Numbered from the stretch's first letter, positions 3,392 through 61,092 are shown. The stretch is DNA of 64,000 nucleotides from an uncultured Gemmatimonadales bacterium (GCA_963810165.1 CAWEMG010000049.1:11366-75365); one strand, 5' to 3'. Numbers and translations: made by a program. Notes: generated by a model not told the origin, from the letters alone.

Positions 3392-3495
3392 GGCATCCTC
3401 CGGTGGAGATAGCTGAGCTTGGAGCTTGGAGCTGGGAGCCCAGCACAACGCCAGGATCCGACGCGCTCCGCGCCGCCACTGTTTCAACATAACAG

Positions 3496-3526
3496 AAAAA
3501 AGGGACGCAGAGTGTGTCTGCGTCCC
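3496..3526 (-). terminator. Intrinsic terminator after rpmA
   Basis: Minus strand: GGGACGCAGA-cacac-TCTGCGTCCC followed by TTTTTT (3496-3501), 27 nt after the rpmA stop. Confidence 0.75.
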
Positions 3527-3552
3527 AGCTCCTGACTCCCGGCTCCCCGCTA

Positions 3553-5960: not shown

Positions 5961-6046
5961 TCATCCCAGAGAAAACGCGCTCCTCGGAGGCTGCCCACGA
6001 CCGTATGGAGGAGCATGCCGCGAAAAGCGCGTCGCTGCTGGCGCTA

Positions 6047-6082: not shown

Positions 6083-6169
6083 GAGTCGCCAGTCGCCGGT
6101 TGCCGGTTGCTAGTTGCTCAGTCGGCGACGAAGGTTGGCCCTGACTGGCGACTGACGACTGGCGACTGC
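6083..6169. repeat. Heptamer-repeat inverted arms (AGTCGCC / GGTTGCC units)
   Basis: GAGTCGCCAGTCGCC-GGTTGCCGGTTGCTAGTTGC...CTGACTGGCGACTGACGACTGGCGACTGC. The left AGTCGCCAGTCG is the reverse complement of the right CGACTGGCGACT. The right arm abuts the acyl-CoA dehydrogenase stop codon. Confidence 0.6.
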
Positions 6170-11532: not shown

Positions 11533-11580
11533 GACGCATCCTCATGTGACTTGTCTGCCCCGCTGCCCCGCTGCCCCGCC
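11436..11580. repeat. GGGGCAGC-octamer inverted arms bracketing an ~80-nt loop
   Basis: Arm 1 is 11436-11473 (GGCAG CGGGGCAG CGGGGCAG CGGGGCGG CGGGGCAG C). Arm 2 is 11555-11580 (CTGCCCCG x3 CC). The two are reverse complements. The loop contains the RBS and ATG of the 11089-11532 ORF. Confidence 0.8.
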
Positions 11581-11581
11581 C

Positions 11582-31341: not shown

Positions 31342-32378
31342 GTGCCCGACGTCTGTCGGACTGGACACCTTTTACCGCCGTACCGCCGTACCGCCATAGC
31401 TCGAGGTGAGCTGTTGCCCAACGCGATCGAAACCAGCGGGCTGGTCAAGACCTTCGGTGAGACTCGCGCGCTCGATGGTGTGGACCTCCACATTCGCGAG
31501 GGATCGGTCTACGGCCTGCTGGGGCCGAACGGCGCCGGCAAGACCACCGCCATCCGCATTCTCACCACCTTGCTCCGCCCCACGGCCGGTACTGCCAGCG
31601 TGCTGGGCCACGATGTCGTGCGCGAGGCCCGGGCGGTGCGCGAGAAGGTGAGCTTGACCGGCCAGTACGCCTCGGTGGACGAGGACCTCACCGGGTACGA
31701 GAACCTGATCCTGGTGGGACGGCTGCTGGGGCTCTCCTGGCGCGGCGCCCGGGAGCGCGCGTCGGAGCTGCTCGAGGCCTTCGGTCTGGCGGAGGCCGCG
31801 GGAAGGCAGGTGCAGACCTACTCCGGCGGCATGCGGCGCCGCATCGACATCGCCGCCAGCCTGGTGGCGATTCCGCGAGGTGCTCTTCCTCGACGAGCCG
31901 ACCACCGGGCTCGATCCCCGGAGCAGGAACCAGGTGTGGGAGCTGGTGCGGCGGATCTCATCGGAGGGGACCACCGTCCTCCTCACGACTCAGTATCTGG
32001 ACGAGGCCGACCGGCTGGCGGAACGCCTCGCGGTGGTGGACCGGGGCCGGGTCATCGCCGAGGGTACCAGCCGCGAGCTCAAGGCATCGGTCGGCGCCAG
32101 CGCGCTGCACCTGAGGCTCGCGAGCGCGGACCAGCGGGGATTGGCGGAGGAGCTGGTGGCGCGGGTCCTGGGCGATGGGCTCCTGCCGGTAAGCGAGCCG
32201 ATGGAGCTGGCGGTGCGGCTCTCGAACCCGGGTCAGGCGGCCGAGGTGCTCGCCGCGCTCACGCAGGCAAGCGTGGAAGTCGCCGAGTTCTCGGTGGGAA
32301 ACCCGAGCCTGGACGAAGTATTCCTGGCGCTCACGGGACGGCAGCGCGGAGCACCCCGTCCCGGAGGCCGTGACATGA
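31342..32378 (+). pseudogene. ABC transporter ATP-binding protein (DrrA/ABC-2 type), 2 frame breaks
   Basis: Walker [14 protein letters not shown]-loop, signature YSGGMRRR, then a frame break at about 31.875 kb before Walker [13 protein letters not shown]. As given, the ORF reads through into the permease. A shifted frame gives ...[12 protein letters not shown] with TGA 32376-32378 overlapping the permease ATG. The start is uncertain (GTG 31342 or TTG 31414). Confidence 0.85.
31373..31396. repeat. Three tandem octamers TACCGCCG
   Basis: TACCGCCG TACCGCCG TACCGCCA, immediately upstream of (or inside the 5' extension of) the ABC ATPase gene. Confidence 0.7.
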
Positions 32379-33202
32379 CCACCGACGTTCTTCCCTCGGG
32401 CGAGCGGACCCACCAGGTGCTCGCCATGGGGGCCCGGCCCCGCCCGGCCTCGGCCCTGTCTGCCGTCGCGACGCTGGCCTGGCGCGCCATGCTCAAGATC
32501 AAGCACGTCCCGTTTCAGCTCTTCGACGTGACCGTGATGCCGATCATGTTCACGCTCCTGTTCACCTACATCTTCGGCGGCGCGCTCGCGGGCACGCCGC
32601 GGCAGTACATCCAGTACCTGCTGCCGGGGGTGCTGGTGCAGACCGTCATCTTCATCACGGTGTACACCGGCATGGGGCTCAACACCGACATCAACAAGGG
32701 GCTGTTCGACCGGTTTCGTTCGCTGCCCATGTGGCAGCCGGCTCCCCTGCTCGGCGCTCTGGCGGGCGACCTGTTTCGCTATTCGGTTGCGTCGACGCTG
32801 ATTCTCGTGGTGGGATTCATCCTGGGCTTCCGCCCTCAGGGCGGCGCCGTCGGCGTGATCCTGGCCGTGGCTTTGGTGCTGGTGTTCGCCTTTGCCCTGT
32901 CCTGGCTCTGGATCATCGTGGGCATGCTGGTGAGAACGCCGGAGTCGGTCATGACCACCAGCTTTATTTTTCTGATGCCGCTGACATTCGCGAGCAACAT
33001 CTTCGTGGAGCTGTCCACCATGCCGGGCTGGCTTCAGGCCGTGGTGGGCCGGAACCCGGTGACCTACCTGGCGAACGCATCACGCGCGCTGATGCACGGA
33101 CAGCCGGCAGGGACCGACGTAATGTGGGTGCTGGTGGCGTCCGCCGTCATCGTGCTGGTGGCGGCACCGATTGCCATGAGGATGTATCGGAAGGAGAGGT
33201 AA
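32375..33202 (+). CDS. ABC-2 type transporter permease
   Basis: GGAGG lies 7 nt before ATG 32375. Six hydrophobic segments and the ABC-2 pattern (FDRFRSLPM...). Intact. Confidence 0.8.
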   Translation: MTTDVLPSGERTHQVLAMGARPRPASALSAVATLAWRAMLKIKHVPFQLFDVTVMPIMFTLLFTYIFGGALAGTPRQYIQYLLPGVLVQTVIFITVYTGMGLNTDINKGLFDRFRSLPMWQPAPLLGALAGDLFRYSVASTLILVVGFILGFRPQGGAVGVILAVALVLVFAFALSWLWIIVGMLVRTPESVMTTSFIFLMPLTFASNIFVELSTMPGWLQAVVGRNPVTYLANASRALMHGQPAGTDVMWVLVASAVIVLVAAPIAMRMYRKER

Positions 33203-33341
33203 GCGGGTAAGTAAGAAAGCGGGTAAGTGAGAAGCGGGTAAGCGGGTAAGCGCGACAGCGCGACAGCGGGACAGCGGGACAGCGTGACAGCGGGACAGCG
33301 GGATCAGCGGGACAGACGTGACATCGGGACGAGCGGACAGC
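33199..33341. repeat. Direct array of about 16 tandem octamers (GTAAGCGG units switching to GACAGCGG units)
   Basis: GTAAGCGG GTAAGTAAGAAAGCGG GTAAGTGAGAAGCGG GTAAGCGG GTAAGCGC GACAGCGC GACAGCGG GACAGCGG GACAGCGT GACAGCGG GACAGCGG GATCAGCGG GACAGACGT GACATCGG GACGAGCG GACAGC. The array starts on the permease stop codon. Confidence 0.85.
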
Positions 33342-45059: not shown

Positions 45060-46414
45060 ATGCTGAATCGTCTGGCCTGTGCATTCATAGCAATGTCCCT
45101 CACAGCGGCACGGCGCGCGTTCGGGCCAAGCCCCTGCCCTGCCCGACACATCCTGGGTCGCGCGGAGCGCCCTCTACGAGGTGTTCGTCCAGGACTTCTC
45201 GCCCTCGGGCAACTTCCGTGGCCTCATCGATGGGCTGCGATCGCATTCAGGCGTCCGGGGCCAACGTGCTGTGGCTGATGCCGATCTACCCGATCGGCAC
45301 GCTCAACCGGAAGGGAACGCTGGGGTCGCCATATGCGGTGAGAGACTACCGCGCGCATCAACCCCGCGTACGGCAATGCCGCGGACTTCCGGGCGCTGGT
45401 GGAGGCGGTGCATGCGGCGCGGGATGAAGCTCATCCTCGACTGGGTGCCGAACCACACCGCTCCCGACCATGCCTGGGTCAAGCAGCACCCCGACTACTA
45501 CGTCCGGAACGAGCGCGGCGAGCCGAGCGTGCCACGGGATGAGAAGGGAAAGCTGACCGACTGGACCGACGTCGCGCAGCTGGACTACAAGAATCCCGCG
45601 GTCCGGCGCGAGATGATCGCCACCATGCAGCACTGGCTGAAGGAGTTCGGGATCGACGGCTTCCGGGTCGACGTCGCCGGCTTCATCCCGATCGACTTCT
45701 GGCGCGAGGCGGTACCCAAGCATCCGCGCCGCGGTGCCCCGGCGGATCATGCTGCTGGCCGAATGGGGCGACCTGGAGATGCACCGGGCCGGCTTCGACC
45801 TGACCTACGCCTGGGACTCCTACGACCGGCTCAAGGCAGTGTGGCAGGGAGCGCCGGCATCGAGCTTCGTCCAGGGCGAGCTGCCGGACATGAAGGCCAT
45901 GCCCCCGGGCGGGATGCGCATGCGCTTCAGCACCAACCACGACAAGACGGCCTGGGAGGATCCTCCGGTGAAGATCTTCGGTCCCGCAGCCGGAGCGCGG
46001 GCGGCCTTCGTCGCCGTGGCGCTGCTGCCGGGCCGGCCCCTGCTCTACAACGGGCAGGAGGTCGAGAGCCCGCAGAAGCTGCGGCCTGTTCGAGCGCGAC
46101 CCCATCCGGTGGAATCAGCCGCAGGCGAGCCGAGGCCCGAGCATTTTACGCCAAAGTTATCGGGCTGGCGCGGACCGAGCCCTCGCTGCTCGTCGCCGGA
46201 CCTCCGGCCGATCGAGACCAGCGCCCCCAAGGACGTGATCGCGTATCGCCGGGGCGATCTGGTCGTGCTGGTGAACGCCAGGCCACGCGCGGTGAGCTTC
46301 ACCGTGACCGGCTTCGACGTGGATGGCGCGCGTGACCTCCTGTCGAAGAACACGCAACGTGGCGACACCATCTCGCTGCCGGCACATGGGCCGCTGGTCC
46401 TGAAGAAGCCCTAG
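45060..46414 (+). pseudogene. GH13 alpha-amylase-family glycosidase, about 5-6 frame breaks
   Basis: AGGAG lies 7 nt before ATG 45060, with signal-like MLNRLACAFIAMSLTAA. GH13 regions I DWVPNHT, II GFRVDVAGF, III LLAEW, IV FSTNHD, distributed over three frames. Confidence 0.85.
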
Positions 46415-46430
46415 ATCAGTTCCGCGTACG

Positions 46431-46605
46431 ACAAAGCAACTGCGCACCACGGAAGCACGGAAGACACGGAAAAAACACGGAAGAAACAGCATGTTTGCCG
46501 CACCAAAGCTTGGCGCCACAAGTCGTCAGAAAACTATAGGAGCGATGTTGATTCTTCCGTGCAGCTTCCGTGTTTTCCGTGTTTCCGTGGTGGGCCTTTG
46601 TTTTC
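46431..46605. repeat. CACGGAAG-octamer inverted-repeat element, copy A (~175 bp)
   Basis: Left arm ACAAAGCAACTGCGCACCACGGAAGCACGGAAGACACGGAAAAAACACGGAAGAAAC. Right arm GATTCTTCCGTGCAGCTTCCGTGTTTTCCGTGTTTCCGTGGTGGGCCTTTGTTTTC. The ~65-nt loop contains AAACTATAGGAGCGATG. Confidence 0.85.
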
Positions 46606-49034
46606 TCATCACGGCAGCGCCGGCCACCGCGCAGCGGCAGCGCCTCTCCATGGACCCGGGCTGGCGTTTTACGCTTGGCGATCCCGCCGGAGCCGAGCAG
46701 GCCGTCGTTCGATGATCGCCGTTGGCGCTCGCTGGACCTGCCGCATGACTGGAGCATCGAGGGGACTCCGCGGGAAGATGCGCCCGGCGGGGGCCGGGTG
46801 GGCTACTTCCCTGCCGGCATCGGCTGGTACCGCAAGACCTTTCGGTTGCCGTCGGGTGCGCGTGATCGCGACGCGTGGCTCGAGTTCGACGGCGTGTACA
46901 TGAACAGCGACGTCTGGATCAACGGCGTCCACCTCGGCAACCGGCCGTACGGGTACATCAGCTTCGCCTACGACATCACCCGGCACCTGGTGCCGGGCGT
47001 GAACGTGATCGCGGTGCGGGTGGACAACGCGCAGGCAACCCAACTCCCGGTGGTACACCGGCAGCGGCATCTACCGGCACGTCTGGCTGACCCTGGTGGA
47101 CCGGTTGCACGTCGGCCACTGGGGCACCTATGTGACCACACCACGCGTCGATTCCGCCGGGGCCGAGGTGGTGGTCCGTACCCGGGTCGAGAATGGCCAC
47201 CCCAAGGCCCGGAACGGGGTGCTTCGCTCGGTAGTGATGGACAGCGGCGGCCGGGAGGTCGCACGGGCAGACACCTCCTTCACCCTGGCCGCCGGCGCCA
47301 AGATGGAGCTGGAGCAACGCCTCCGGGTCGCATCGCCCGCGGCTGTGGTCGGTGGAGTCACCGACGCTGTATCAGCTCCACTCGGTCGTGCGGGACGGCA
47401 AGCGCGCAGCCGACCGGGCTATCACGACGTTCGGCATTCGCACATCGAGTACCACAAGGATCGCGGCTTTCTGCTCAACGGCCGACAGGTCAAGATGCGG
47501 GGCGTGAACCTGCACCACGAAGCCGGCGGCCTCGGCGCCGCGGTCCCGGAGCAGGTCTGGCGCCGCCGGCTCCAGATCCTGAAGGCGATGGGGGCCAACG
47601 CCATCCGCACCGCCCACAATCCACCTGCGGCTGAGTTCCTCGATCTGTGCGACAGCTGGGCTTCCTGGTCATGGCGGAGGCGTTCGACGAGTGGACCGTC
47701 CCCAAGGTACCGGAGGGATATCACAAGTAGTTCGCCGAGTGGGCCGAGCGAGACGTCACCGATTTCGTCCGGCGGGACCGGAATCACCCTTCGATCGTGC
47801 TGTGGAGCGCGGGCAACGAGATCGGCGAGCAGAGCATGCCCGGCGGAGACCGGGTGCTCCGCCGCCTCGTCGATCATCTTCCACCGTGAGGATCCCACCC
47901 GGCCGGTGACCACCGGCAACGACAAGATCGCCGCCGATAGCACTCCCGCCACGCTCGCGTTCCTCAATGCCCTGGACATCGTGGGCTACAACTACGTGGA
48001 TCGCTGGCACGAGCGCCGGGAGATCTTCGCCACCGAGGACCGGCACCAGCACCCGGAGTGGAAGATGATCGGCACCGAGAGCGGCACCATCTTCCAGTCC
48101 TTCGACGAGCGCTATTCGCTGGGGCCGGATTCGTCGGTCGTCCGTCCCAACTACACTCATGGCATGCTCCAGGCGGAGCGGCTCTGGAAGTGGATCACGC
48201 TGAACGACTACTTTGCCGGCAACTTCATGTGGACCGGGATCGATTACCTCGGCGAGAGCACCTGGCCCTTCAAGGGCTTCCCCTCGGGTGCCATGGACAT
48301 CACCGGCGCTCCCAAGGACATCTACTACCTCTATCAGAGCCTGTGGACCGATCAGCCGGTGCTGCGCCTCTTCCCCCACTGGAACTGGCCCGCCGCACCG
48401 GCCAGGTGATCCCGGTGCTGGCCTACACCAACTGCAACATCGTGGAGCTGTTTCTCAACGGCCGCTCCCTGGGCGAGAAGCGGCTGGAGTTCCCGGCCCA
48501 GGGCACATCCGGCGGCTGGAACAGCTACGCCCAACCACTGGTCAATCCGACCACCACCGACCTGCACCTGAGCTGGGACGTGCCCTATGAGCCGGGCGTG
48601 CTCCGGGCGGTGGGCAAGCGCCGCGACGGAACGGTCGGCATGCCAGGCGGAGACCCGAACAGCTGGCCCGGCGGCGGCCATCCGGCTTGTCCGCGGACCG
48701 GGATACCATCACCACCGGTTCGGGTGACGTCGCGCACGTGACGTTCGAAATCGTGGACTCGGCCGGCACCGTGGTCCCCACCGCGGACAACTCTCGTGAC
48801 CATCACGGCGGCAGGTGGCACCGCCTCTGGTGGTGGACAACGCCGACCTGCTCGACCTCGCTCCATACCGGCCCGACCGCCGGCGTGCGTTCAACGGCCG
48901 AGGGCTGGCGATTCGTGCGAGCCGAGAAGCCGGGTGTGCTACGGGTGAGCGCGAGCGCGGATCGGTTGAGCCCGGCGACCGTGACCGTGCAAGTGGTGCG
49001 AGGTCCGCGGCAATCTGACGCGGGCCGGAGGTGA
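46545..49034 (+). pseudogene. GH2-family glycosidase (beta-galactosidase-like), about 8 frame breaks plus an in-frame TAG at 47728-47730
   Basis: [149 protein letters not shown]. The signal peptide MLILPCSFRVFRVSVVGLCFLITAAPATAQ is encoded by the right arm of element A. Confidence 0.85.
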
Positions 49035-49067
49035 ACCGGAAGCTAACTGCCACGCTACGGCTAGGCT

Positions 49068-49086
49068 CACACGGAGACACGGAGAG
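49068..49086. repeat. Solo CACGGAGA arm fragment
   Basis: CACACGGAGACACGGAGAG, in the same orientation as the left arm of element B. It lies in the convergent spacer after the GH2 stop. Confidence 0.5.
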
Positions 49087-49140
49087 CTGCTGAGGCTGCA
49101 AGGGTTCAGAGGCTGAGCCACAGCATCCCGAGTCGTCTAT

Positions 49141-49678
49141 TCATACTGTCTGGGCCCCGTATCGCCGCGTCACCTGAGCAGAATAAAGGGCGACTTGGTC
49201 GATCTGATGGCCGGTTTCCGTGCAACGACTTCGTGCCCTAGTGGCAGCCGTGCTCGGAACGTAGGCGCTGAAGACGTTGCGTGCCGTTGACCGCGAGAAT
49301 GCGGCGCGCCGTCGACTTCCGGCAGGGAGAGCGAGCTTCGACGGCGGCTGCTCCCGCAGAAACGTGACGATGCGTTTCGCGGCCGGCGGGAGACGGAAGG
49401 CACGGTATGGATCGGACGCCAGCATCTCCCGCAGATGCAGTCGACCGGTCGCACGATCGTGAGGAAAGTTCCGGCCGAGCTCCTGCGGTCATGGCGGCCT
49501 CGGCCTTCCGCTGGAGGGCCGTTTCGGAGTGCGGCGCGAGCCGTGAAGACCAGATTGCCGCTCGAGAGGAGCGTTCTGCACGTCGGTGAACCCGGCCGCC
49601 TCGAACGCCTTTTTCAGATCTGGCATCTTCGCGTTCATCGGGCATGACCCCGCGGAGAAAGGCGGCATACGTGGGCAT
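49141..49678 (-). pseudogene. DUF1697 domain protein, about 3 frame breaks
   Basis: MPTYAAFLRGV / NAKMPDLKKAFEAAGFTDVQ / TLLSSGNLVFTA / MLASDPYRAFRLPPAAKRIVTFLRE lie in three frames. The order matches DUF1697 (M..Y..LLRG.N..G...MA.L...F...GF..V.T...SGN..F). Confidence 0.55.
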
Positions 49679-49691
49679 CGCGGAAAGATAC

Positions 49692-49893
49692 AACCGCAAC
49701 TGCGCACCACGGAGACACGGAGAAAGACGGAGCCCGCACGGAGACTGCACGAGATCTCTCCGTGGTAATTCTTTGATGTCTTGTGGGGGTGGGGGTGGGG
49801 CACCTTTTTGGCGAACGAAGATACTAGAGGTACTACTCTGACAAATCCGTGCCATCTCCGTGTCCTCCGTGTCTCCGTGGTGAGCTTTTGCGG
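49692..49893. repeat. CACGGAGA-octamer inverted-repeat element, copy B (~200 bp)
   Basis: Left arm CGCAACTGCGCACCACGGAGACACGGAGAAAGACGGAGCCCGCACGGAGAC. Right arm AATCCGTGCCATCTCCGTGTCCTCCGTGTCTCCGTGGTGAGCTTTTGCGG. The loop contains GTGGGGGTGGGGGTGGGG and ACTAGAGGTACT. Confidence 0.85.
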
Positions 49894-52531
49894 AGTCCTT
49901 CTGCTCGCCTCACTTCTCGTCGCGCGTGACGCTGCGGCGCAGGCACAAGCCGCTGCCGGCTGCACCCGCCAACCGCGCCGTCTACCTGGACAAGGAGGGC
50001 GTCATCCGCTGGCGCGACAATCGGCAGGAGGTCGCCCTCTTCGGCGCGAACTACGTGCTGCCCATCCGCCTCCGACTATCGCGCGGCCGGCTATCTCAAG
50101 GCCGACCGGAAGCGCATGATCGACGAGGACATGGCGCACTTCGCCCGGATGGGCTGGGACGGTCTGCGGCTCACGTTCTGGGGTGACTGGGAGGCCTCCG
50201 ACACCGCCGGCAACCTGATCGCCAACGATCATCTGGACCTGCAGGACTACCTCATCGCCCGCGCGCGCGAGCGCGGGATCTACATGCTCTTCAGCCCGAT
50301 CCAGCTGTACGGCTCCAACTGGCCGGATGCGCTCCAGGACACCACCCAGCCGGGCTTCGGGCGGCACTTCGGCAAGGAGCGGATGGGCACCGACCCGGCC
50401 GCCCTCGCCGCGCAGGTGAACTACCTGCGCCAGATCCTGAAGCACGTGAACCCATATACCGGCGTCGCGCTCAAGGACGAGCCCGCCATCCTCTTCATCG
50501 AGCTGGTCAACGAGCCCTGCGCACCATCCGGAAGACCTGGAAGGCTCGATCCGCTACATCAACGCGCTCACCGAGGCGGTGCGGAGTACCGGGTGCAGGA
50601 AGCCGATCTTCTACAACGTGAGCCAGGACTTCCGGATCTCCGAGGCAATCAGGCGGTCGCGGGTGGATGGCGTGACCTTCGGCTGGTATCCCACCGGGCT
50701 CAACTCGGGCCGCGAGCTGGAAGGCAACTATCTCCGGGGCGTCGATGCCTTCCCCGACATGCTGCGCCGGGAGATCGCGGGCCTGCCGCGCATCGTGTAC
50801 GAGTTCGACACCCCCGACCTGCGCAACAGTACGATGTACCCGGCCATGGCGCGGACCTTTCGTGCGGTGGGCACGCAGATGGCGCTGATGTTCGCCTACG
50901 ACATGCTGCGGACCGCCTCTCGCAACCTCGGCTGGCAGACGCACTACCTGAACCTGGTCTACACGCCGCGGAAGGCCATGAGCGCGATCATCGCCGCCGA
51001 AGCCATGCGCCGCCTGCCTCGGATGCGCTCATACGGGCCGTATCCACGAAACACCCGGTTCGGCGATTTCCGCGTCTCCCACGAGGAGATCTGGGCGAGC
51101 TGGTCGCGCGGGACGCCTTCCTGTATGCCGGCTCCACCCGATCGAAGCCGCCAGATCGTCTCCGCTCTCCGCCGGATCGCCGGCTATGGCTCCTCTCCAG
51201 TACGGTGACCTACGATGGAGAGGGGACATACTTCCTCGACAAGGTGCGTCCGGGTCTGTGGCGACTCGAGGTCTACCCCGACGCCGTGCCCGTCCAGGAT
51301 CCATTCGAGCCGCCGAGTGCCGACAAGATCGTCACCCGTGCGATCCACCGCTCCTGGCCGATGACGGTGGCTCTGCCCGATCTGGGCGATACGTTTACGG
51401 TCCAGCCCGTGACGGCAGGAAACCGGCGCATCGAGCGCGCCGTGGGCGGCCGCGCGGCGGTGGCGCCGGGGGTCTACGTGCTGAGCGCAGCCGGAGCGGT
51501 GGACCAGGCCACGCTGCCGGCGCATATGGGCCATCTCCGCTTCGCGGAGTACCACGCTCCCCTGGCGGATACCCTGCCCCCGGCCGCCGTGCTCCTGGGG
51601 CCGCGCGCGATACCGGCTGGCCGCGATGCACAGCTCCATGCCCGCCTGGTCCACGGAGCTGCCCCAGACTCGTCTGTTCTGTTTATCAGACGGAGGGCCG
51701 ATCCATCATACCGCGGATACCGGATGCGGATGGTCCGGGGCTACGACTACGCCGCCACCATCCCGGCCGCGGAGCTTCGGGAAGGGCCGCATGAGGTGGT
51801 CGTCACCGTCTTCCACGGCAGATCGAGCGTCAGCTTTCCCGGCGGCGCGGCCCAGGCACCTACCGGCTGGAACTATTCCGACCGCAGCGCCTGGCCGGTG
51901 GACGTGACGGGGCCACGAACCCCGCTGCGCTTGTTCGACGCTGCGTTCGACGCCGAGTCGCTTGCGTTCAGCCGCATCGGCGACGCCGGACGCCGGGGGC
52001 TCTTTCAGCTCGGGCTCTCGGAAGACACCGGCAGGCCGGTCTTTCACGTCGCGCTGCCGGCAGATGACAGCGGCCGCGGGCCCAACGGACTACACCGCTT
52101 CATTGGTGATCGCGAGCCGAGTGCGGGCCCGGCAGGAGACCATCGGACCGGCGGAGTCGCTGCGGCTTCGGCTGCGTGGTCTGGGGGCCCGGCAGGTCCT
52201 GCATGTCACCCTGATGGAGGACGACGGCACCAGCTGGAGCGCCCGGGCGACGGTAGACAGTAGCTGGCGCGAGCTCTCGCTCCCGCTCGGCGATTTCACC
52301 ATCGGTCGGGGCGTGCTGCTCCCCCAAGGGTTTCCGGGCGAGTGGAACTACTGGGTCGGGCCGGCGGAAGGCCGCGGCGGTCCCGGGGATCGTCTCCGGC
52401 TCGAGCATCTCGAGCGGCTGCAGCTCTCACTGCGACGCGAGGACGGAGTAGTTGTCGTCCCGGGTGGCTACGGCGTGGAAGTGGAGTGGGTGACGCTGGA
52501 ATTCGGAGACCGGAGGAGCTCGTCGCGCTGA
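49877..52531 (+). pseudogene. Clan GH-A TIM-barrel glycosidase (GH5-like) with a long C-terminal region of unknown function, about 4-5 frame breaks
   Basis: Signal (V)SFCGVLLLASLLVARDAAAQA starts in the right arm of element B. VALFGANYVLP, MAHFARMGWDGLRLTFWGDWE, ILFIELVNEP (acid/base NEP motif), GVTFGWYPTG. The C-terminal ~450 aa has no motif I recognise. Confidence 0.5.
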
Positions 52532-52542
52532 GGCGGCGCCGG

Positions 52543-52917
52543 CTATCGCCGGGTTACCGTGCTGTTGAAGAGCTGAGGCGCGATGTGAAATTCGATCAGT
52601 GCCCCTGGAGCCAGCATGACTTCGCCGGAGCGGAATGGCTGACCGCCACCTCCACTGGGACGCGCCTCAAACTGGACTGAGCCGTTGCCGACCAGATTCT
52701 GAGGAATCACGAAATTGCCGTTCATACCCGGATGCACCGTACCCATGCGATGATTGATTCCCGAGCCCGAGGCGAAGACCTCGATTGGCAGCGCATGTCT
52801 GTTGGACACCCGAACCTCGACGGAGCCGGCGCTCGGAGCGGCGTCGTTAGCGCCTCCCGAGAGCCCACAGGCGCTCAGCAGCAGTGCAGGAAAAAGGAGT
52901 CGCAATCCGGGAAGCAC
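52543..52917 (-). CDS. Lipoprotein, hypothetical
   Basis: MLPGLRLLFPALLLSACG lipobox. 124 aa, intact. Confidence 0.5.
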   Translation of the reverse strand: MLPGLRLLFPALLLSACGLSGGANDAAPSAGSVEVRVSNRHALPIEVFASGSGINHRMGTVHPGMNGNFVIPQNLVGNGSVQFEARPSGGGGQPFRSGEVMLAPGALIEFHIAPQLFNSTVTRR

Positions 52918-53048
52918 GTGCTCTCCAGGTCTGAGGCACTACCAAGTATGCCGAACGGCCGATCCCCGCGCCAGCCCGACTTTCCTGACACGGGTGGTTC
53001 TGCCATCGCTTCAACGTTGGCACTCTACTCATCACAACGGGAAATCTT

Positions 53049-55213
53049 GTGAACTCTTTGGTGCAGGCTTCTTGTTCCCGGTTCCTCAGTGGTCCGTTGG
53101 CCGCACTCATCGTGGCCGCTTCTCCGCTAGAGGCCCAGGTACGTGTGGTCTCCCCCGACGGCCGCAACCAGGTCACTGTAGAGATTCGCGAAGGCCGGCT
53201 GAGCTACAGCCTTGTCCGCGACGGACGCCCGCTGATCCTGCCTTCCATGCTGGGCTTCGCGTTTCGGGGGGCACCGCCGCTGCGAGACCGGCTCCGCATC
53301 ACCGACACCACCCGGCAGGCGAAGGACGAGTGGTGGACCCAGCCCTGGGGCGAGGTGGCACGGGTCCGCGACCACTACAACGAGCTGGCGGTCACCGTCT
53401 ACGGAAACCGACCGCCCGGCCGCCCGACACTTTATCCTGCGGGTGCGGGCATTCGACGACGGCGTGGGCTTCCGGTACGAGCTTCCGCAGCAGCCGGCGC
53501 TCGGCGGGTTCGTGATCAGTGATGAGCTCACCGAATTTGCCCTGGCCGACAACTCGCGGGCCTGGTGGATTCCGTCCAACTATGCCCGGAAAGACCGGTC
53601 CGAAATGCTTTACTCATCGGGCCCGGTCAGCGTGCTCGACAGCGTGCAAACCCCGCTCACGATGCAGTCCCAGGACGGCCGCACCTTCATGGTGATCCAC
53701 GAAGCCAATCTCGTGGACTACGCCCGGATGTTTCTGCGGGGCGCGCGCAGCGAAAGCCGCGTCCTCACGGCCGCCCTGGCGCCGATGGCCGACGGCACCA
53801 AGGTGCGGGGCCGCACGCCATTCGTGACGCCCTGGCGCACGATTCAGCTGGCCGACCGCGCCACCGGGCTGTCGCCTTCCCTGCTCGGCTTGAAGCTCAA
53901 TCCCCCGAACGCGCTCGCCCGCACCGACTGGATCCATCCCATGAAGTACGTCGGCATCTGGTGGGGCATGCACATCGGCACCATGAGCTGGAGCTCGGGA
54001 CCGAAACACGGCGCCACCACCGAGAATACCAAGCGATACATCGACTTCGCGGCGGCCAATGAGCTCGGCGGCGTGCTGGTGGAGGGATGGAACACCGGCT
54101 GGGACGGAGACTGGATCGCGAACCGGGAGGCGTTTTCGTTCACCCAGTCCTATCCCGACTACGACCTCAAGGCCGTTGCTGCGTACGCCAAGCAAAAGGG
54201 CGTGCGGCTGATCGTCCACAACGAGACCTCGGGCGGGGTCGAGAACTACGAGCGCCAGCTGGACAGCGCCTTCACCCTGTACCGGTCGCTGGGGCTCGAT
54301 GCCATCAAGTCCGGCTACGTCACCGACCTGACCAGCGAGGGCCACTCGCACTACTCGCAGTACATGGTGCGCCACTATCGCAAGGTGGTCGAGGCGGCCG
54401 CCAAGTACGGCATCATGGTGAACGTCCACGAGCCGATGCACGACACCGGCGAGCGGCGGACCTACCCCAACATGATGAGCCGCGAGGGGTCCCGCGGTCA
54501 GGAGTACAACGCCTGGAGCGGCGACGGCGGCAACCCGCCGGAGCACGAGACCATCCTCTTCTTCACCCGGCTCCTGGCCGGGCCCATGGACTTCACGCCG
54601 GGGATCTTCGATCTGCTGCGGGTCCGCCGGCCGGAGGAGCCCCGGGTCCGCACCACCCTGGCCAAGCAGCTCGCGCTGTACGTGGTCCTCTACTCGCCGA
54701 TGCAGATGGCGGCCGATCTCCCGGAGAACTACGAGGGACAGCCGGCCTTCCAGTTCATCCGCGATGTCGCGGTGGATTGGGACACGACCCGGGTGCTCGA
54801 CGGCAGGATTGGAGACTATGTCGCGGTCGCGCGCCGTGAGCGCGGGGGGCCAGACCTGGTTCGTGGGAGCGATCACCGACGAGGAGGGGCGCACGCTTGA
54901 CCTTCCGCTCACCTTCCTCACCCCGGGCCAGCGCTACGTCGCCGAGATCTATGCGGATGGCCCCAAGGCGCATTGGCTGGACAATCCGCTGCCGGTCACC
55001 ATCAATCAAACCGCCGTGACCTCCGCGACCCGGCTGCGGGTCAGGCTGGCGCCCGGCGGCGGCCAGGCGATCCGGATCCGGCCGGCACGACGAACAGAGC
55101 GCTCGTTCCGCGCATTCCGTGTACTGAGTGCTGAAGGCGACTGCGCTCGCTCGCCCGGGCGATGGGGGTGCATACCCGCTACATCAACGGCCTGGGCAAG
55201 GCCGTCACCGTAG
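53049..55213 (+). pseudogene. GH97 alpha-glucosidase (SusB-like), 2-3 frame breaks, C-terminus unresolved
   Basis: VSPDGRNQVTVEIREGRLSYSLVRDGRPLILPSMLGF, RAFDDGVGFRYELP, WWIPSNY...EMLY, TPWRTIQLAD, YVGIWWGMH, VLVEGWNTGWDGDW, VHNETSG, YVTDL...HYSQYMVRHY, VNVHEP..DTGERRTYPN.MSREGSRGQEYNAW, FTRLLAGPMDFTPGIF. The in-sequence frame runs to 55213. TGA codons at 55125 and 55132 in other frames are alternative ends. Confidence 0.85.
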
Positions 55214-57072
55214 CTCCCGAGACGCTGGTGCGGGTCTGCGCAGCGCTTGGGAGCCTCGATCGAGCGGCCGGGCGATGCCACCGATGCACTCACCGAACAT
55301 CGCGAGCAGGCCCAGGCGCAGCTCGTGCCGCCTGTGCTCGTTGCCTGGGATGGGTGCCCTCGCCCTTACGATCTCCACCGATCGCCCCATCCATGCCCAG
55401 CTGCAGCTCGAGGACGGATCGGTCGTCCCGCTGGCCCGTTCGGAAGCCGGGTTGGGGACCGCACAGCCGCTTCCCTCCGGGTACCACCGTCTCACCGTCG
55501 AGGCTGGCGAGCCGAAGCGAGACGAGCACGGTCATCGCCGCGCCGCTTCAGGTCTGGCGACGGCCGGGGGAGCATCGGAGCTGGGGCGTCGGGACCCACC
55601 TGGCCGCGCTCCGCTCGGCACGCAGCCGATCGCTTGGAGATCTTCGGGATCTCGAGCTGCTCTGTCGCTGGGTGGGTGAGCGCGGCGGCGACCTGGTCAC
55701 GGTCCTTCCCCTGGTCCCGACCTTCAACTCCCGGCCGCCGGAGCCCAGTCCGTACTCGCCGGTGAGCCGGCTCTTCTGGTCCGAGCTGATCCTCGATCTC
55801 GGTCAGAACCACCGCGCCGTGCCACCACCCCAGGGCCTGGACGTCACCCGCGCCGACGCCGAACTGCGACAAGCTCTGGCCGGGCATCCGCTGCCACCGC
55901 TCTCGGAGCTGGACGAGGAGCTGGTCCGCTACGCCCGCTTTCGCGGCGCGCAGGTCCGGCTCGGCAGGAACTGGCGGGACTGGCCGGCATCCGCCCGCGC
56001 CGGCACGCTCTCTCCTGAGGACATGGATCCGGAAGAGGAGCGCTTTCACCTCGTGGCCCAGACGCTGGCGCGCCGCCAGCTTCGCGACCTGCGGCAACGC
56101 CTCGACGCCGATGGATTTCGTCTGGGGCTCGACCTCGCGGTGGGAGTCCATCCGGACGGCTACGACCCCTGGTCGCGCCAGGCTCTGTTCGCCGAAGGGA
56201 TGTCGGTGGGCGCCCCTCCCGACCAGGGCTTCCCCAGCGGGCAGGACTGGGGGTTCAGCCCGGTGCTTCCCGGGGCATCCCGCCTGGAGGGGCATCGCTA
56301 TCTAGCGGCTTCCATAGCTCACCAGGCGGGGCTCGCGGGCGTGCTCCGGGTGGACCACATTATGGCCTGGACCCGGCTGTACTGGATCCCTCACGGGCTC
56401 GGCCTGCACGACGGGACCTACGTCTCCTATCCGGCCGAGGAGCTGTTCGCGGTGCTGAGCCTGGAGTCGAACCGCCACCGATGCGAGGTGGTGGGCGAGA
56501 ATCTGGGCACCGTGCCGCGCGAGATCTTCGAGGCGCTACCGCGCCACCGGATCTGGGGCATGTACCTCGCCATGTTTCAGGCGTCCGCCGGCCCGGTGGT
56601 TGCGCCGCCGACCGCGGCGGACATGGCCCTGGTCGGCAGCCACGATACGCCGACGTTCGCGGGTTGGCTCAAGGGCAACGACATCGCGGACCGGGTGCGC
56701 CATGGACTGTTGCCGGAGGCAAAAATGCCGGCGGTCATGGAGGAACGGCAGCGCGCCGTCGGATGGTTGGCGGCCCAGCTGGAGAGTACCGCCGAGAACC
56801 CTCGCGCCTTGCTGGCTGCGCTGCTCGAGTGGCTCGGCCGCTCGGACAGCCCGCTCGTGGTTCCCTGGCTCGAGGACCTCTGGCTCGAAGAGGAGTCCGT
56901 CAACCTGCCTGGCACCCCGTCATTCGTTCGCCCCAACTGGCAGCGGCCGATGCGGCGGCTGCTGGACGAGATCTTCAGTGACCCGGACGTGGACGAGCTG
57001 GTACGCCGTCTCGACCGCGCTCGGAGGTCACAAGTCACTCGCGGAGAGATCCTTCGACTGCGCTCAGGATGA
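55162..57072 (+). pseudogene. malQ: 4-alpha-glucanotransferase (amylomaltase, GH77), about 3 frame breaks in the N-terminal 350 nt
   Basis: The long ORF has RSWGVGTHLAALRS..S.GDLRDL, PLVPT...SPYSPVS, GLDLAVGVHPDGYDPW, GQDWGFSPV, LRVDHIMA, VGENLGTVP, GSHDTPTFAGW, NLPGT. The N-terminal domain (ALALTISTDRPIHAQLQLEDGSVVPLA...YHRLTVEAGE) is in ORF 55128-55679. The true start may be GTG 55128. Confidence 0.88.
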
Positions 57073-57103
57073 CAGCACTGGTGGAAAACCGTGAGGGATA
57101 GAC

Positions 57104-58691
57104 ATGGCAACACACGCCGTAACTGCTCCTGCTCTGCCAGTCCGCACGAAGCCGCGACTCACGTTCTGGGAAATCTGGAACATGAGCTTCGGCTTCCTCG
57201 GCATTCAGATCGGCTTCGCCCTCCAGAATGCCAACGTGAGCCGGATCTTCGAGACCCTGGGTGCCAAGGTGGAGAACATCCCCATCCTCTGGATCGCAGC
57301 ACCGGTGACCGGTCTCCTGGTCCAGCCGATCGTCGGCTACATGAGCGATCGGACCTGGAACCGCCTGGGCCGACGGCGGCCTTACTTCCTGGTGGGGGCG
57401 ATCCTGGCGTCGCTCGCGCTGCTGGCGATGCCGAACTCGCCGGCGCTCTGGGTCGCGGCGGGTATGCTCTGGATCATGGATGCGTCGATCAACATCTCCA
57501 TGGAACCGTTTCGCGCCTTCGTGGGCGACAATCTGCCCTCGGAGCAGCGGACCACCGGTTTCGCGATGCAGAGCTTCCTCATCGGCACCGGCGCGGTGGC
57601 GGCCTCGATTCTTCCCTGGCTCCTGACCACGCAGTTCGGGGTGAGCAACGAGGCGCCGCCGCACATGATCCCGGACTCGGTGCGGCTCTCGTTCTACTTC
57701 GGCGCCGCGGTGTTCTTTCTGGCGGTGCTGTGGACGGTGCTGCGCTCGAAGGAGTATGCGCCCGAGGAGATGGCCAGCTTCGCGGAGAACCAGGCGCGGG
57801 AGGGCGTAAGACAGGAGAGTCGAACGGCCGCGGAGTTCAGCGTGAACGGCGGGCGCCAGATCCGCGTGGGGGCGATCCTATTGGTTGTCGGCGTGGTGCT
57901 GAGCGCCTGGCTGGCCCGGGCCGAGATCTACCAGGTGATGATCCTGTCTGCCGGGGTCGCGGCCGTTGGGCGTGCTGCTGATCCTCAGTGGTCTGCTGCA
58001 GCGGGGCGGCCGCTACGACAACGGCTTCGTCACCATCCTGAACGACTTCCAGGACATGCCCCGTACCATGAAGCAGCTGGCCTGGGTCCAGTTCTTCTCC
58101 TGGTTCGCGCTCTTCGCCATGTGGATCTACACCACGCCGGCGGTGACCAGCCATCTCTACGGCACCACCGACGCCAGCTCGGCGCTCTACAACGAGGGCG
58201 CCAACTGGGTCGGGGTGGGTTCGGCGCGTACAACGGCGTCGCGGCCGTGGTCGCCTTCGGAATCCCGATCCTGGCGCGGCGGACCAACCGCAGGATCGCG
58301 CACGCGATCTGTCTGGTCTGCGGCGCCCTCGGGCTGCTATCGATTCTGGTGCTCAACGATCCGCGTCTCCTGCTGGGCTCGATGGTGGGGGTCGGGATCG
58401 CCTGGGCCAGCATCCTCGCCATGCCGTACGCGATCCTGACCGGCTCGCTGCCGCCGTCGAAAATGGGCTACTACATGGGGGTGTTCAATTTCTTCATCGT
58501 GATCCCCCAGATCGTCGCGGCGGCGCTTCTGGGCTTTCTGGTGGGGCGCTTTTTCGGTGGCGAGGCGATCTACGCGCTCGCCATCGGCGGCGGCTCGCTG
58601 CTCCTGGCCGCGGTGCTCACCCTGCGAGTAGAGGACAGGGACGAGCCGGAGACCGGGACGTGGCATCCAGGGTTCCCTCCACCTCGGTCTG
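57104..58691 (+). pseudogene. MFS sugar transporter (SLC45/GPH-like, maltose/sucrose type), 2-3 frame breaks, C-terminus unresolved
   Basis: LTFWEIWNMSFGFLGIQIGFALQNANVSRIFETLGA...QPIVGYMSDRTW.RLGRRRPYFLVG...MEPFRAFVGDNLP. The second half (MKQLAWVQFFSWFALFAMW..., GIAWASILAMPYAIL) is in other frames. The given frame reads through element C to 58915. Confidence 0.8.
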
Positions 58692-58697
58692 ATCATG

Positions 58698-58869
58698 GCA
58701 AAGCAACTGCGCACCACGGAACACGGAAGACGCGGAAGTGCCGGAACTCGGTGGAAGCCGGGAATGCGTCGCGTAACGGAGGTAGACATCCAGTCGGTAT
58801 CAGCCCTTGCCTAGCTGTTCCGTGCGACTTCCGTGTCTTCCGTGTTTCCGTGGTGCGCTTTTGTTTTTG
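58698..58869. repeat. CACGGAAG-octamer inverted-repeat element, copy C (~172 bp)
   Basis: Left arm GCAAAGCAACTGCGCACCACGGAACACGGAAGACGCGGAAGTGCCGGAAC. Right arm CTGTTCCGTGCGACTTCCGTGTCTTCCGTGTTTCCGTGGTGCGCTTTTGTTTTTG. Confidence 0.85.
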
Positions 58870-60519
58870 TTCGCCACGCTGGTCGGCGCGTGTGGCCCCA
58901 GACCCGAGACGATGAAGTCCGTCCCGCCGGTGCGACTGCCTCAGCCACCGACCCGGCCGTGTTCTGGAACAGCGCCACCATCTACTTCCTGCTCACCGAT
59001 CGCTTTTTCAACGGAGACTCGACCAACGACCGCGCCGCGGGCCGCGCGAAGGACGGAGCGGTGCTGCGGAACTTCGAGGGTGGAGACCTCGCCGGCGTGC
59101 TCCAGAAGATCGAGGAGGGATACTTCGACAGCCTGGGCGTGACCGCCATCTGGATGACTCCGTTCGTGGAGCAGATCCACGCAGGGGTCGACGAGGGAAC
59201 CGGGAAGACCTACGGATACCACGGCTACTGGACCCGCGACTGGACCGCCGTGGATCCAGCGCTGGGAACCACAGGACGACCTTCGCGCGGTGGTGGACGC
59301 TGCCCATCGGCATGGCATTCGGGTCCTCATGGACGCAGTGATCAACCACACCGGCCCAGCGACCCCACAGGATCCCGCGTGGCCCGGCGACTGGGTGCGC
59401 ACGGCTCCCAACTGCTCCTACAAGAGCTACGTCACCACGGTGGACTGCACCCTGGTGGCCACGCTTCCCGACATCCGCACCGATCGCGACGCGCCGGTGG
59501 CACTCCCTCCAGCCCTGCTCGAGAAGTGGCAGCAGGAGGGGCGACGGGAGCGCGAAGTGGCGGAGCTCGACGCGTTCTTCGAGCGCACCGGGTACCCGCG
59601 CGCACCGCGCTACTATGTCATCAAATGGCTGACCGATTGGGTGCGCGAGCTCGGCTTCGACGGCTATCGGCTGGACACCGCCAAGCACTTCGAGCCGGCG
59701 GTCAGCGCCGAGCTGAGGCGTGAAGCCGAAGAGGCGCTGAGCGGACTGGAGGCGGACGCATTCGGATCAGGTTCGGGACAGCCTGCCTGTTCTACATGGT
59801 GGGCGAGGTCTACGGTTGGGAGCCGGGCCAGGGCGCGGGAGTACAGCTTCGGCGACCGGACCGTGGACTTCTTCTCCCACGGTTACGACGCCCTCATCAA
59901 CTTTGGCTTCAAGAGCGATACCGCGTCGCTGGATGGTCTCTTCAGCCGGTACTCCGCGATGCTCGACGGCGGGATCACTCCGCGGGGTCAGCATGCTCAA
60001 CTACATCAGCTCTCACGACGACGGATCGCCGTACGATCCCGACCGGAAGGATCCCATCGGCGCCGGGACGCGACTGCTGCTCGCACCAGGGGGCGCTCAG
60101 ATCTACTACGGCGACGAGCTGGCGCGGCCGCTGAGGGTCTCAGGGGCCGAGGGCGATGCGAACCTGCGGTCGTTCATGAACTGGGGAGATCTGGAGCGCC
60201 GGGCCGAGGTTCTACAGCATTGGCGCAAGCTGGGGCGATTCCGTCGGGCCCATCCTGCCGTGGGGGCCGGCGTACATCGCACGCTTCAGGCGAAGCCGTA
60301 CATCTTCAGCCGCACGCTCGAGTCGGGGGGCAAGGTCCGATCGCGTGCTGGTGGCGATGGATCAGGGAAAGGGGGCCAAGACGATCCCGGTGTTTGGCGT
60401 GTTCCCCGATGGCACCAAACTGGTGGACGCATACTCGGGCGTGTAGCCACTGTGTAAGAGACGGGAAGGTTTCGCTTACGACCGGATCCGGCCTGGTACT
60501 GCTCGCTGAGCCACGGTAA
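58822..60519 (+). pseudogene. GH13 alpha-amylase, lipoprotein, about 5 frame breaks
   Basis: GTG 58822 gives (M)RLPCLPCFRGALLFLFATLVGAC (lipobox), encoded by the right arm of element C. FLLTDRFFNGD, GH13 regions I LMDAVINHTG, II GYRLDTAKH, III MVGEVYG, IV NYISSHDD. The end is ...KVSLTTGSGLVLLAEPR*. Confidence 0.85.
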
Positions 60520-61084
60520 AGGCGCACCACGGAAGCACGGAAGACACGGAAGTAGCACGGAAGAACGGACATTACCGCAGAAATCGACTTAATGCCGTGC
60601 GAACAGAGTTGATACGTTGAATTTAATGAGAGAGTCCGGAGGACTCCCATTGCAGGCGCATGTAAGTCAACTGAGCTGATGCGGAATGAATCGGGGACGG
60701 TTTATCACTGATTTTATTTCGACAACTAGGACGTCTTCGATCAGTAGATCAATGACATACCCCTTCGCGAGCTGTATTCCCTTGTATTGCAAGAGGCAAG
60801 ACAACCTCGCTTCGATACGGGATCTCTCGAGCTCGCGACACGGGCATATATCATTGATTCGTTGATCGAGAGACCGGGCCTAATTGACGAGATCAAAGCC
60901 GTCGATGCAAACTCGCTGGCCGTTCGTCTGCATGACTGATGAGCCTACATGCGTCTCACAACAGCTCTCCCATGATCTTCTCGACTGAATTATCAACGTT
61001 CACCTTTTACCGCACGGCATCAAGAGAATCTGCTGTGATCCGTGCCTTCCGTGTCTTCCGTGCTTCCGTGGTGAGCTTTTGCAG
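60516..61084. mobile_element. CACGGAAG-octamer inverted-repeat element, copy D (~570 bp), with a low-GC core carrying a GxxExxY pseudogene; IVS-like cassette
   Basis: Left arm 60516-60568 and right arm 61037-61084 are reverse complements. A nested 10-bp inverted repeat ATGCCGTGCG/CGCACGGCAT lies at 60592-60601 / 61011-61020. The core is ~49% GC by hand count (205/420 over 60601-61020). It sits between two convergent GH13 stops (60519 and 61093). Confidence 0.7.
60572..61003 (-). pseudogene. GxxExxY-family (PD-(D/E)XK nuclease fold) protein remnant
   Basis: Minus-strand hand translation: ...RPGLSINESMIY... / ...LSCLLQYKGIQLAKGYVIDLLIEDVLVVEIKSVINRPRFIPHQLS*LTCACNGSPPDSLIKFNVSTLFARH* / HGIKSISAV. 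This matches the family pattern YKG..L..GY..DLLVE..VIVELK...H.AQL..YL...LLINFNV...GIKR, with in-frame stops and frame breaks. Confidence 0.6.
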
Positions 61085-61092
61085 TTACGGCG

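Follow-up and report, generated by a model that had tools for sequence, protein, structure and literature searches.

Hairpin elements with inverted arrays of short units in an alpha-glucan locus of Gemmatimonadales belong to a widespread family associated with GxxExxY genes

Why do the spacers of a single glycan locus hold the same pair of inverted arms several times over? The locus is an alpha-glucan utilization cluster in the genome of an uncultured Gemmatimonadales bacterium, and the stretch of DNA analyzed here (GCA_963810165.1 CAWEMG010000049.1:11366-75365; 64,000 nucleotides [nt], hereinafter the window) carries four copies of an element with inverted arms, named A to D, and one solo arm. 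The initial annotation, made from the sequence alone, had taken them for a mobile or at least proliferating family of hairpin-forming elements, and we recovered all five features where it had placed them. Each end of an element consists of a cap (TTCACC, or GC-N-CACC in the window) and 3 to 5 heptamers of the form C-R-C-N-G-A-G, ~8 nt apart (hereinafter units), and the two ends are inverted. We favor, with moderate confidence, a reading in which the copies are widespread selfish hairpin cassettes made of unit arrays, whose full form carries a gene of the GxxExxY family, whose build is like that of the intervening sequences (IVS) of 23S rRNA, and whose right arms have been partly co-opted in this locus. 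Copy D is a decaying full copy, and A, B, and C are gene-less copies.

Association of the arms with GxxExxY genes

The core of copy D, i.e., the part between its arms, scored 30.9 bits against TIGR04256 (E = 3e-7), short of the curated cutoff of 35, and 30.8 bits against PF13366 (E = 4e-7), where the cutoff is 22 and was passed, in agreement with the GxxExxY gene that had been read there at the outset. The gene has several frameshifts and one in-frame stop, and the G+C content of the core is 47 to 53%, versus 66% for the window. Copies A, B, and C lack the gene, which among the window copies is found only in D. Across the loci of the genome scan described below, GxxExxY was the only recurrent small gene bracketed by arms among the matches listed.

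An independent test used 80 GxxExxY loci from metagenomes, picked by protein similarity alone. With the strict arm motif, an arm was found upstream of the gene in 30 loci, downstream in 32, and on both sides in 26, and in all 26 two-arm loci the left-type arm was upstream and the right-type arm downstream. The density of arms was 2.21 per kb beside the GxxExxY gene, compared with 0.04 per kb in the rest of these loci. When inverted repeats were sought regardless of their sequence, they flanked 65 of 78 GxxExxY genes, and most of these 65 shared one design, a TTCACC cap followed by units at a spacing of ~8 nt (variants CACGGAG, CACAGAG, CGCGGAG, CGCAGAG, CGCCGAG, CACTGAG, and CACGAAG). These cassettes fit closely between host genes: the left arm begins 0 to 20 nt past the upstream host stop codon, and the right arm stops a few nt short of the next host start. 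The same host junctions were occupied in lineages differing at synonymous sites of the host genes, and the cargo gene was co-oriented with its neighbors in about two-thirds of the cases. The same design was present in finished isolate genomes of Bacteroides finegoldii (in the order radA, GxxExxY, FAD-dependent protein), Bernardetia, Gemmatirosa, and Sphingomonas (between fabD and fabG). The element ends are common to the GxxExxY-bearing copies, and GxxExxY is not a known transposase.

Some of the fetched comparison loci, which we label with L-numbers, showed more complex layouts. L028 has an arm, the gene, and a full hairpin that is a direct duplication of the left arm (5490 to 6045); in L059, two identical 120-nt hairpins surround the gene and are nested in an outer arm pair (1040 to 1760); and L088 has the order hairpin, gene, hairpin. 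The nested and duplicated layouts of L059 and L028 may be footprints of a mechanism of insertion or renewal.

The GxxExxY protein has ~125 amino acids (aa) and conserved D…E-x-K nuclease residues. A search of PDB sequences gave no significant match, and by sequence the protein has no solved homologue; the commonest fold neighbors, all nonsignificant, were minimal PD-(D/E)XK nucleases such as Hjc resolvases. In libraries of defense and phage proteins, GxxExxY belonged to no family and had only a weak Cas4-like match (E = 0.003). A faint GxxExxY-like tblastn match at 15.9 kb of the window was dismissed as noise. The family is large, since 7,989 of 8,000 scored candidates passed E ≤ 1e-5, and most of its proteins lie on short contigs of ~1 to 2 kb, suggesting that short-read metagenome assemblies are routinely interrupted at the arms. 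Protein databases may also contain spurious open reading frames (ORFs) that are translated arms (FRVFRG, HGDTE…).

Distribution of the family and architecture shared with rRNA intervening sequences

A scan of one genome per species with the pattern GCNCACCACGGARNCACGGAR revealed at least 118 loci in metagenome-assembled genomes (MAGs), against an estimated ~17 chance matches. Among the matches listed, to which the following counts refer, MAGs of more than 10 phyla carried the motif, with Acidobacteriota, Planctomycetota, Gemmatimonadota, Chloroflexota, Myxococcota, Armatimonadota, Bacteroidota, Spirochaetota, and Pseudomonadota represented. An inverted partner was present for ~75 of 128 arms, and the strictly paired elements spanned 64 to 668 nt, from tight hairpins to long cores. 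By a rough ORF caller, 58 arms were beside a 3' end of a gene (45 of these no farther than 45 nt from the stop codon), versus 32 beside a 5' end. The initial rule that an arm always follows a 3' end was therefore too strict, and in the window itself the left arm of copy B adjoins the 5' end of a minus-strand DUF1697 pseudogene. In other phyla, the copies with tight loops had A-rich and T-rich outer flanks. The arm design was also present in Illumina assemblies and finished isolate genomes. The elements are not confined to one locus, and the cross-phylum scan, together with presence/absence polymorphism among relatives (see below), bears out the view of a proliferating family, of which the window copies are members. 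Rfam had no family for them at the gathering threshold or at E values up to 5; its subthreshold matches to miRNA precursors, obtained on Gemmatirosa hairpins, reflect hairpin shape only. A literature search with arm strings and with TIGR04256/PF13366 returned no description of the arms, and this widespread, cross-phylum family is apparently undescribed.

The closest architectural match is with IVS. These are selfish elements consisting of a hairpin plus an ORF, known for more than 30 years and located in helix 9, 25, or 45 of 23S rRNA, with Coxiella, Leptospira, and Azospirillum among their carriers. We know of no means of spread for them and of no function for their ORFs. The 23S IVS of Coxiella is a selfish element of 428 nt with a decaying S23p ORF; its 5' arm has 2 to 3 tandem heptamers GACAGAT, in strain-variable number, and RNase III cuts at the first repeat (PMC4990558). 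For comparison, we fetched four-helix-bundle/S23p genes from isolates, and these were flanked by inverted arrays of 7- to 8-nt units, as follows.

Nostoc: TAGGGAG
Geminocystis: AAAAGGG
Gemmatirosa: GCAGGAGG
Riemerella: TTCAAGG
Azospirillum: GAC[AG]GAG

The Azospirillum copy lies inside 23S rRNA (RF02541, E = 1e-140) and is a true IVS. The shared inverted unit arrays place the window arms in the same design class as the arms of IVS, with another cargo and another host site.

Polymorphism and concerted change at orthologous sites

We compared the window with the syntenic loci L199 (the closest relative), L201, and L202, and with L200 for the junction between GH97 and GH77, two of the glycoside hydrolase (GH) genes of the locus. 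Of the six elements in L199, four correspond to A, B, C, and D as orthologues, one lies upstream of GH97, and one between GH97 and GH77. At this last junction, L200 has no element and the two genes overlap as GTGA; L199 and L202 have one placed exactly between stop and start, and the window has a remnant (55105 to 55130). At site D, the orthologue in L199 (15446 to 15981) carries a nearly intact GxxExxY gene in the orientation opposite to that in the window (60513 to 61085), consistent with inversion via the inverted arms or with independent re-insertion. The same site is an eroded remnant in L201 and a mere left-arm stub in L202, and site C has collapsed to ~50 nt in L201. Orthologous sites among relatives are therefore polymorphic, being filled, eroded, collapsed, or empty.

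Each element has one unit subtype, and orthologous elements differ between genomes. At site B, 7 of 7 units are GGAG in the window and 5 of 5 are GGAA in L199, with orthologous flanks; the GGAG subtype is found at sites A and D in L201 and at site C in L202. Subtypes that are uniform within an element and differ between orthologues indicate concerted replacement or homogenization, rather than independent point mutation. We infer that the elements of this locus are old residents.

Copies in the window and their host locus

The two-unit motif CACGGARNCACGGA, searched with at most 1 mismatch, had 9 matches in the window against 0.33 expected, a number reached by none of 100 shuffles, and all 9 were within 46.4 to 61.1 kb. 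The arm pairs delimited by a repeat finder were the following.

Copy A: 46430-46492/46545-46607, 63 nt, 79% complementary
Copy B: 49694-49722/49865-49893, 29 nt, 90%
Copy C: 58700-58739/58827-58867, two segments, 86% and 95%
Copy D: 60513-60552/61046-61085, 40 nt, 90%

Each arm of A to D has 3 to 5 units, which end in A (GGAA) in copies A, C, and D and in G in copy B, and the cores span 50 to 490 nt. The arm ends were as initially described, apart from the left end of D, which lacks the CAACT ascribed to it (GGTAAAGGCGCACC). The parts of the elements are listed below.

46430 to 46492, plus strand: left arm of copy A, …CAAAGCAACT / GCGCAC and 4 CACGGAA units, starting 16 nt past the TAG stop (46412-46414) of the upstream GH13
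46493 to 46544, plus strand: core of copy A, partial conserved gene-less module (…GTCGTCAGAAAACTATAGGAG), with a Shine-Dalgarno (SD)-like AGGAG at 46538-46542 and then ATG at 46545
46545 to 46607, plus strand: right arm of copy A, putative in-frame reading MLILPCSFRVFRVSVV, on into the GH2 signal peptide GLCFLITAAPATAQ / RQRLSMDPGW
49068 to 49086, plus strand: solo left-type arm with 2 CACGGAG units, following the 3' end of GH2; orthologue of the left-arm units in L199 copy B
49694 to 49750, plus strand: left arm of copy B, CCGCAACT / GCGCAC and CACGGAG-type units, followed at ~49757-49767 by a short nested right-arm-like piece (TCTCCGTGGTAA)
49768 to 49845, plus strand: core of copy B, conserved gene-less module GTGGGGGTGGGG…TAGAGGTACTACT at 49825-49837, then CTG at 49838
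49846 to 49893, plus strand: right arm of copy B, which from CTG 49838 would read LTNPCHLRVLRVSVV, on into SFCGVLLLASLLVARDAAAQ of the downstream 715-aa protein
55105 to 55130, plus strand: right-arm remnant, missed initially, GTTCCGCGCATTCCGTGTACTGAGTG, in the spacer between GH97 and GH77
58700 to 58745, plus strand: left arm of copy C, starting 7 nt past a candidate TGA stop (58690-58692) of the major facilitator superfamily (MFS) transporter; this TGA is out of frame with the called ORF, in a frameshift-prone assembly
58819 to 58867, plus strand: right arm of copy C, which from GTG 58822 would read (M)RLPCLPCFRGA, on into LLFLFATLVGAC (lipobox) of the downstream GH13
60513 to 60570, plus strand: left arm of copy D, including the TAA stop of the upstream GH13
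60573 to 61005, minus strand: cargo of copy D, broken GxxExxY / PD-(D/E)XK (PDDEXK_3) gene
61039 to 61085, plus strand: right arm of copy D, adjoining the 3' end of the convergent minus-strand GH13 (61112-…)

The solo arm and copy B are separated by a frameshifted DUF1697 gene (minus strand, ~49150 to 49690; PF08002, E = 2e-7 for the N-terminal piece). Since the solo arm and the left-arm units of L199 copy B are orthologous, an older element seems to have received this gene together with a new left arm in the window.

The gene order of the host locus is given next.

TonB-dependent receptor, SusD, GH13, GH2, unknown 715-aa protein, GH97, GH77, MFS transporter, GH13, convergent GH13

Homology of its GH77 (80 to 82% identity to the closest proteins) assigns the organism to the Gemmatimonadales; a lookup of the exact GH77 protein returned no record. 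No rRNA was found in the window. GH2 (46545 to 49040) has ~6 changes of reading frame, and its G+C content at third codon positions (GC3) is still near 0.9; GH13, GH97, and the 715-aa gene also change frame, and breaks of the same kind occur in the genes of L199. This pattern is typical of long-read indel errors, rather than of pseudogenes. With frame switches so many and GC3 so high, single-base indels within the copies may be errors as well, and small indels should not be overinterpreted.

The window has further arrays of short units. The stretch 11434 to 11593 is a second unit-array hairpin (left side, 4 to 5 units of GGGGCAGC; right side, their complement; 23 nt perfectly complementary, core of 82 nt), of the same design and another family, and resembles the GCAGGAGG arms at the Gemmatirosa four-helix-bundle gene. 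Inverted pairs of tandem 7-nt units were also present at 6084 to 6167 (three AGTCGCC, 36 nt between arms) and at 3415 to 3545 (three GAGCTTG, 85 nt between arms, 78% complementary). A one-sided direct array of ~15 8-nt units, with GCGGGTAA grading into AGCGGGAC, spans ~33195 to 33340, and no inverted partner was found for it; three GTACCGCC units at 31372 to 31395 lie just upstream of an ABC-ATPase-like ORF. Elsewhere, on the Pseudanabaena galeata plasmid pPg_01 (L210), a four-helix-bundle gene between cas6 and cas4 is flanked by ~15 and ~10 tandem AAAAGCT / AAAAGCC heptamers, which are apparently direct, not inverted.

Right arms as probable parts of signal peptides

A conserved module lies immediately inward of one arm in copies A and B, though not in C, and also in copies of L199, L094, L089, and L085. 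It reads …TCAGAAG·TAGAGGTAYT·…(C/T)TGAC… and contains an SD-like GAGG followed 6 to 7 nt on by CTG, TTG, or ATG. In the window, L199, L085 (829 aa), and L201, site A has a frame that opens at the start of the module and runs across the right arm into GH2; at site B, the frame is open through the right arm into the 715-aa protein in the window, L199, and L085; and at site C, it is open into GH13 in a different frame (PCxRGA…lipobox). In the signal peptides of these downstream enzymes, the hydrophobic core begins precisely where the arm ends on its outer side, and it is preceded by no arginines other than those encoded by the arm. The collapsed site C of L201 has kept 'CSPCLRSALL'.

Judging from these reading frames, the right arms at A, B, and C have probably been absorbed as the n-region of the signal peptides of the downstream enzymes, and the co-opted part probably corresponds to about the first 15 to 20 codons, with the arginine-bearing n-region. 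That the right arms run into the downstream coding sequences, of which they are probably part, had been overlooked in the initial annotation. Such a co-option would help to explain why the elements are retained. It would also pose a problem for gene calling, as the start codons of the neighboring secreted enzymes are probably inside the element, and would offer a case of selfish DNA absorbed into signal peptides.

Evaluation of the favored reading and of its alternatives

The mechanism that we propose for selfish cassettes of this kind has several steps. Since the cassettes occupy tight spacers between two host genes and are usually co-oriented with them, they are probably co-transcribed by read-through. 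The arms would then pair in the host transcript into a long stem, with the cassette looped out, and the stem may be cut by RNase III as in the Coxiella 23S IVS, a processing that is plausible by analogy. At the DNA level, copies would spread or be renewed by a process combining a nuclease and recombination, in which the heptamer arrays would be the recognized sites, most likely by GxxExxY. The right arm would have been co-opted as the start of a signal peptide at all three gene-less copies, with the module of SD and start ahead of it in A and B.

A number of results weigh against this scheme. Neither a known transposase nor a transposition event was seen, and target-site duplications were visible neither at A to D nor in the comparison of filled and empty orthologous spacers between GH97 and GH77. 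Several of the host sites carry an element in many diverged lineages, and old vertical inheritance fits this as well as mobility does. The cores of A, B, C, and their orthologues had no detectable homology to the GxxExxY cassette (P = 0.07 to 0.99); the proposal that A is an internally deleted D is therefore not supported, and A and B instead carry a separate conserved module. None of the 198 loci of two collection scans had a GxxExxY cassette in rRNA. The AlphaFold2 model of GxxExxY was weak (pLDDT of 62), and Foldseek returned no significant match with it. We infer, rather than observe, that GxxExxY recognizes the arms, and units can be near-identical between unrelated cargos (four-helix-bundle and GxxExxY), a point against recognition that is strictly cargo specific. 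On the side of RNA, the data amount to one cassette region (L088) present in RNA-derived contigs, and the translation of the right arms is argued from open frames and signal-peptide logic, with proposed starts that are often CTG or TTG.

The variation between paired arms cuts both ways, in favor of a recognized motif and against the pairing step. Identity between the two arms was 97 to 100% at the six fixed unit positions, and the variable N was identical to its true pairing partner in 76% and to nonpartner units in 72% of the cases. There was no pairing covariation at this position and, when elements were oriented by their gene, no excess of G·U over A·C type differences between arms (48 versus 37; P = 0.28). 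Without covariation or a strand-specific G·U excess, the RNA stem is not independently supported by sequence evolution; in the absence of compensatory change, the arms behave as inverted arrays of a recognized heptamer that is also able to pair. Apparent 'joints' between arms in the RNA contigs of L088 are probably repeat-induced, and among the RNA runs searched for the window, none contained it.

A more far-reaching version of the favored reading is possible, and we put it forward tentatively. GxxExxY proteins would be the dedicated nucleases of a new cross-phylum class of elements that move or renew themselves, as a counterpart of RAYT/REPIN of the PD-(D/E)XK type; the heptamers would bind an oligomer of the protein; the IVS with S23p would be an rRNA-resident branch; and gene-less copies could be domesticated as portable modules of SD, start, and n-region for secreted enzymes.

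Host-serving, nonmobile RNA structures (REP-like punctuation, terminators, or 3'-end stabilizers), with arms retained for a stem that shields or terminates the mRNA upstream and with GxxExxY beside them by chance, are an unlikely alternative with several points in its favor. Arms hug the 3' ends of genes in the counts given above, tight-loop copies in other phyla have A-rich and T-rich outer flanks, elements are long retained at orthologous sites, and the predicted stems are very stable: in line with the initial claim that the copies fold as RNA into hairpin stems, the folds predicted for A and C reached -94 and -99 kcal/mol (z scores of -10.8 and -8.6). Yet RNA structures under selection do not account for the missing partner-specific covariation and G·U bias, nor for the ~55-fold enrichment of arms exactly around GxxExxY genes, with the gene within the arm pair. 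Near-identical sequences across phyla are hard to explain by convergent structure alone, and unit subtypes are replaced in concert. Nor is there a canonical terminator at the window copies. Our scan found no terminator-like site across the arm pair of any copy; its only two matches, fewer than in shuffles, were both short stems on the minus strand, within the left arms of copies A and B. As the cores are long and the right ends are TTT(T)G only, not the U-tract of an intrinsic terminator, we rejected a classical terminator role.

Next comes translational control of the host genes as the main role of the elements in this locus, which we regard as quite unlikely. The right arm would be signal-peptide coding, and the left arm would pair with it in the read-through RNA and block initiation unless the stem were opened or transcription started within the core. 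The module with SD and start and the open frames through the arm are kept in 3 to 4 genomes and at three sites, the stem in A would start within ~8 nt of the proposed start, and the collapsed site C of L201 retains the arm-derived coding part. This reading is opposed by the cores, in which no promoter-like site was found (a scan for sigma-70 promoters in or at the copies gave none), by copy D, which lies between convergent genes, and by the solo arm without a partner; neither of these two can work in this way. Elsewhere, moreover, the family is defined by its cargo gene, not by secreted host genes.

That the arms are CsrA/RsmA-type GGA arrays, which would sponge or recruit the carbon storage regulator, was suggested initially and is rejected here as very improbable. 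Every unit in this genome does contain A-C-G-G-A, and the locus is related to carbohydrates, but the letters of the superfamily are C-R-C-N-G-A-G, with N often A, C, or T (as in CACAGAG, CGCCGAG, and CACTGAG), so that GGA is not conserved; the motifs would lie in a predicted long duplex, not in hairpin loops, and the family tracks a nuclease-like gene, not CsrA targets. An assembly artifact of a tandem repeat, for which the error-prone assembly and its many frame switches might speak, can practically be dismissed, as the same elements are at orthologous sites in independent assemblies, including an Illumina one, and in finished isolate genomes.

The results show that the IVS type of vehicle, i.e., inverted arrays of 7- to 8-nt units, is common outside rRNA and has there a second, unrelated cargo, the very large and uncharacterized GxxExxY/PDDEXK_3 family. 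In soil and gut phyla, the vehicle leaves numerous hairpins without a gene at the ends of host genes. It gives GxxExxY a testable role, with Bacteroides finegoldii and Gemmatirosa kalamazoonensis as cultured carriers, and would explain a class of repeats that breaks metagenome assemblies and yields spurious 'FRVFRG / HGDTE' ORFs.

Comparison with known systems

The GxxExxY protein shares with Hjc-type resolvases and minimal PD-(D/E)XK nucleases a size of ~125 aa, an alpha-alpha-beta-beta-beta-alpha core, and the D…E-x-K motif, and such an enzyme would have a natural substrate in a cruciform extruded from a palindrome; the GxxExxY protein differs in having no significant sequence or structure match to them.

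The Correia elements of Neisseria, according to De Gregorio et al., are reportedly 100 to 200 nt long, have terminal inverted repeats, are inserted near genes, and are co-transcribed, with RNase III cleaving their hairpins; they are also said to be able to supply expression signals to neighboring genes. With miniature inverted-repeat transposable elements (MITEs) in general, the window copies have in common the terminal inverted repeats, the small size, and the multiple copies. In contrast to Correia elements and MITEs, no target-site duplication was seen here and no insertion sequence with a classical transposase shares the ends, which are unit arrays, and the full form carries a 125-aa nuclease-like gene.

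REP/REPIN elements (associated with the names of Nunvar, 2010, and Bertels & Rainey, 2011) are said to be long-lived and largely vertically inherited, and to bracket a small nuclease gene, RAYT. The resemblance lies in the many short gene-less palindromic copies at gene 3' ends, next to a few copies in which inverted repeats bracket a nuclease gene. However, the protein here is PD-(D/E)XK-like, not Y1/HUH; the arms are heptamer arrays ending in TTCACC or GCNCACC, not a single palindrome with 5' GT[AG]G; and the arm sequence is common across phyla, whereas REPs are lineage specific. Among the matches listed, the only recurrent gene between arms was GxxExxY, not RAYT, and no RAYT search was made elsewhere in the genome.

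IVS remain the nearest relatives in design. In both cases a small ORF lies inside inverted arms of tandem, purine-rich 7- to 8-nt units; IVS are called selfish and sporadic, horizontally acquired and then vertically kept, with an ORF that tends to decay. The window copies differ in being placed between glycoside hydrolase and transporter genes, not in helix 45 of the rRNA, and in their cargo, an unrelated protein of the PD-(D/E)XK fold; most of them are gene-less, and parts of them have probably been absorbed into host coding sequence.

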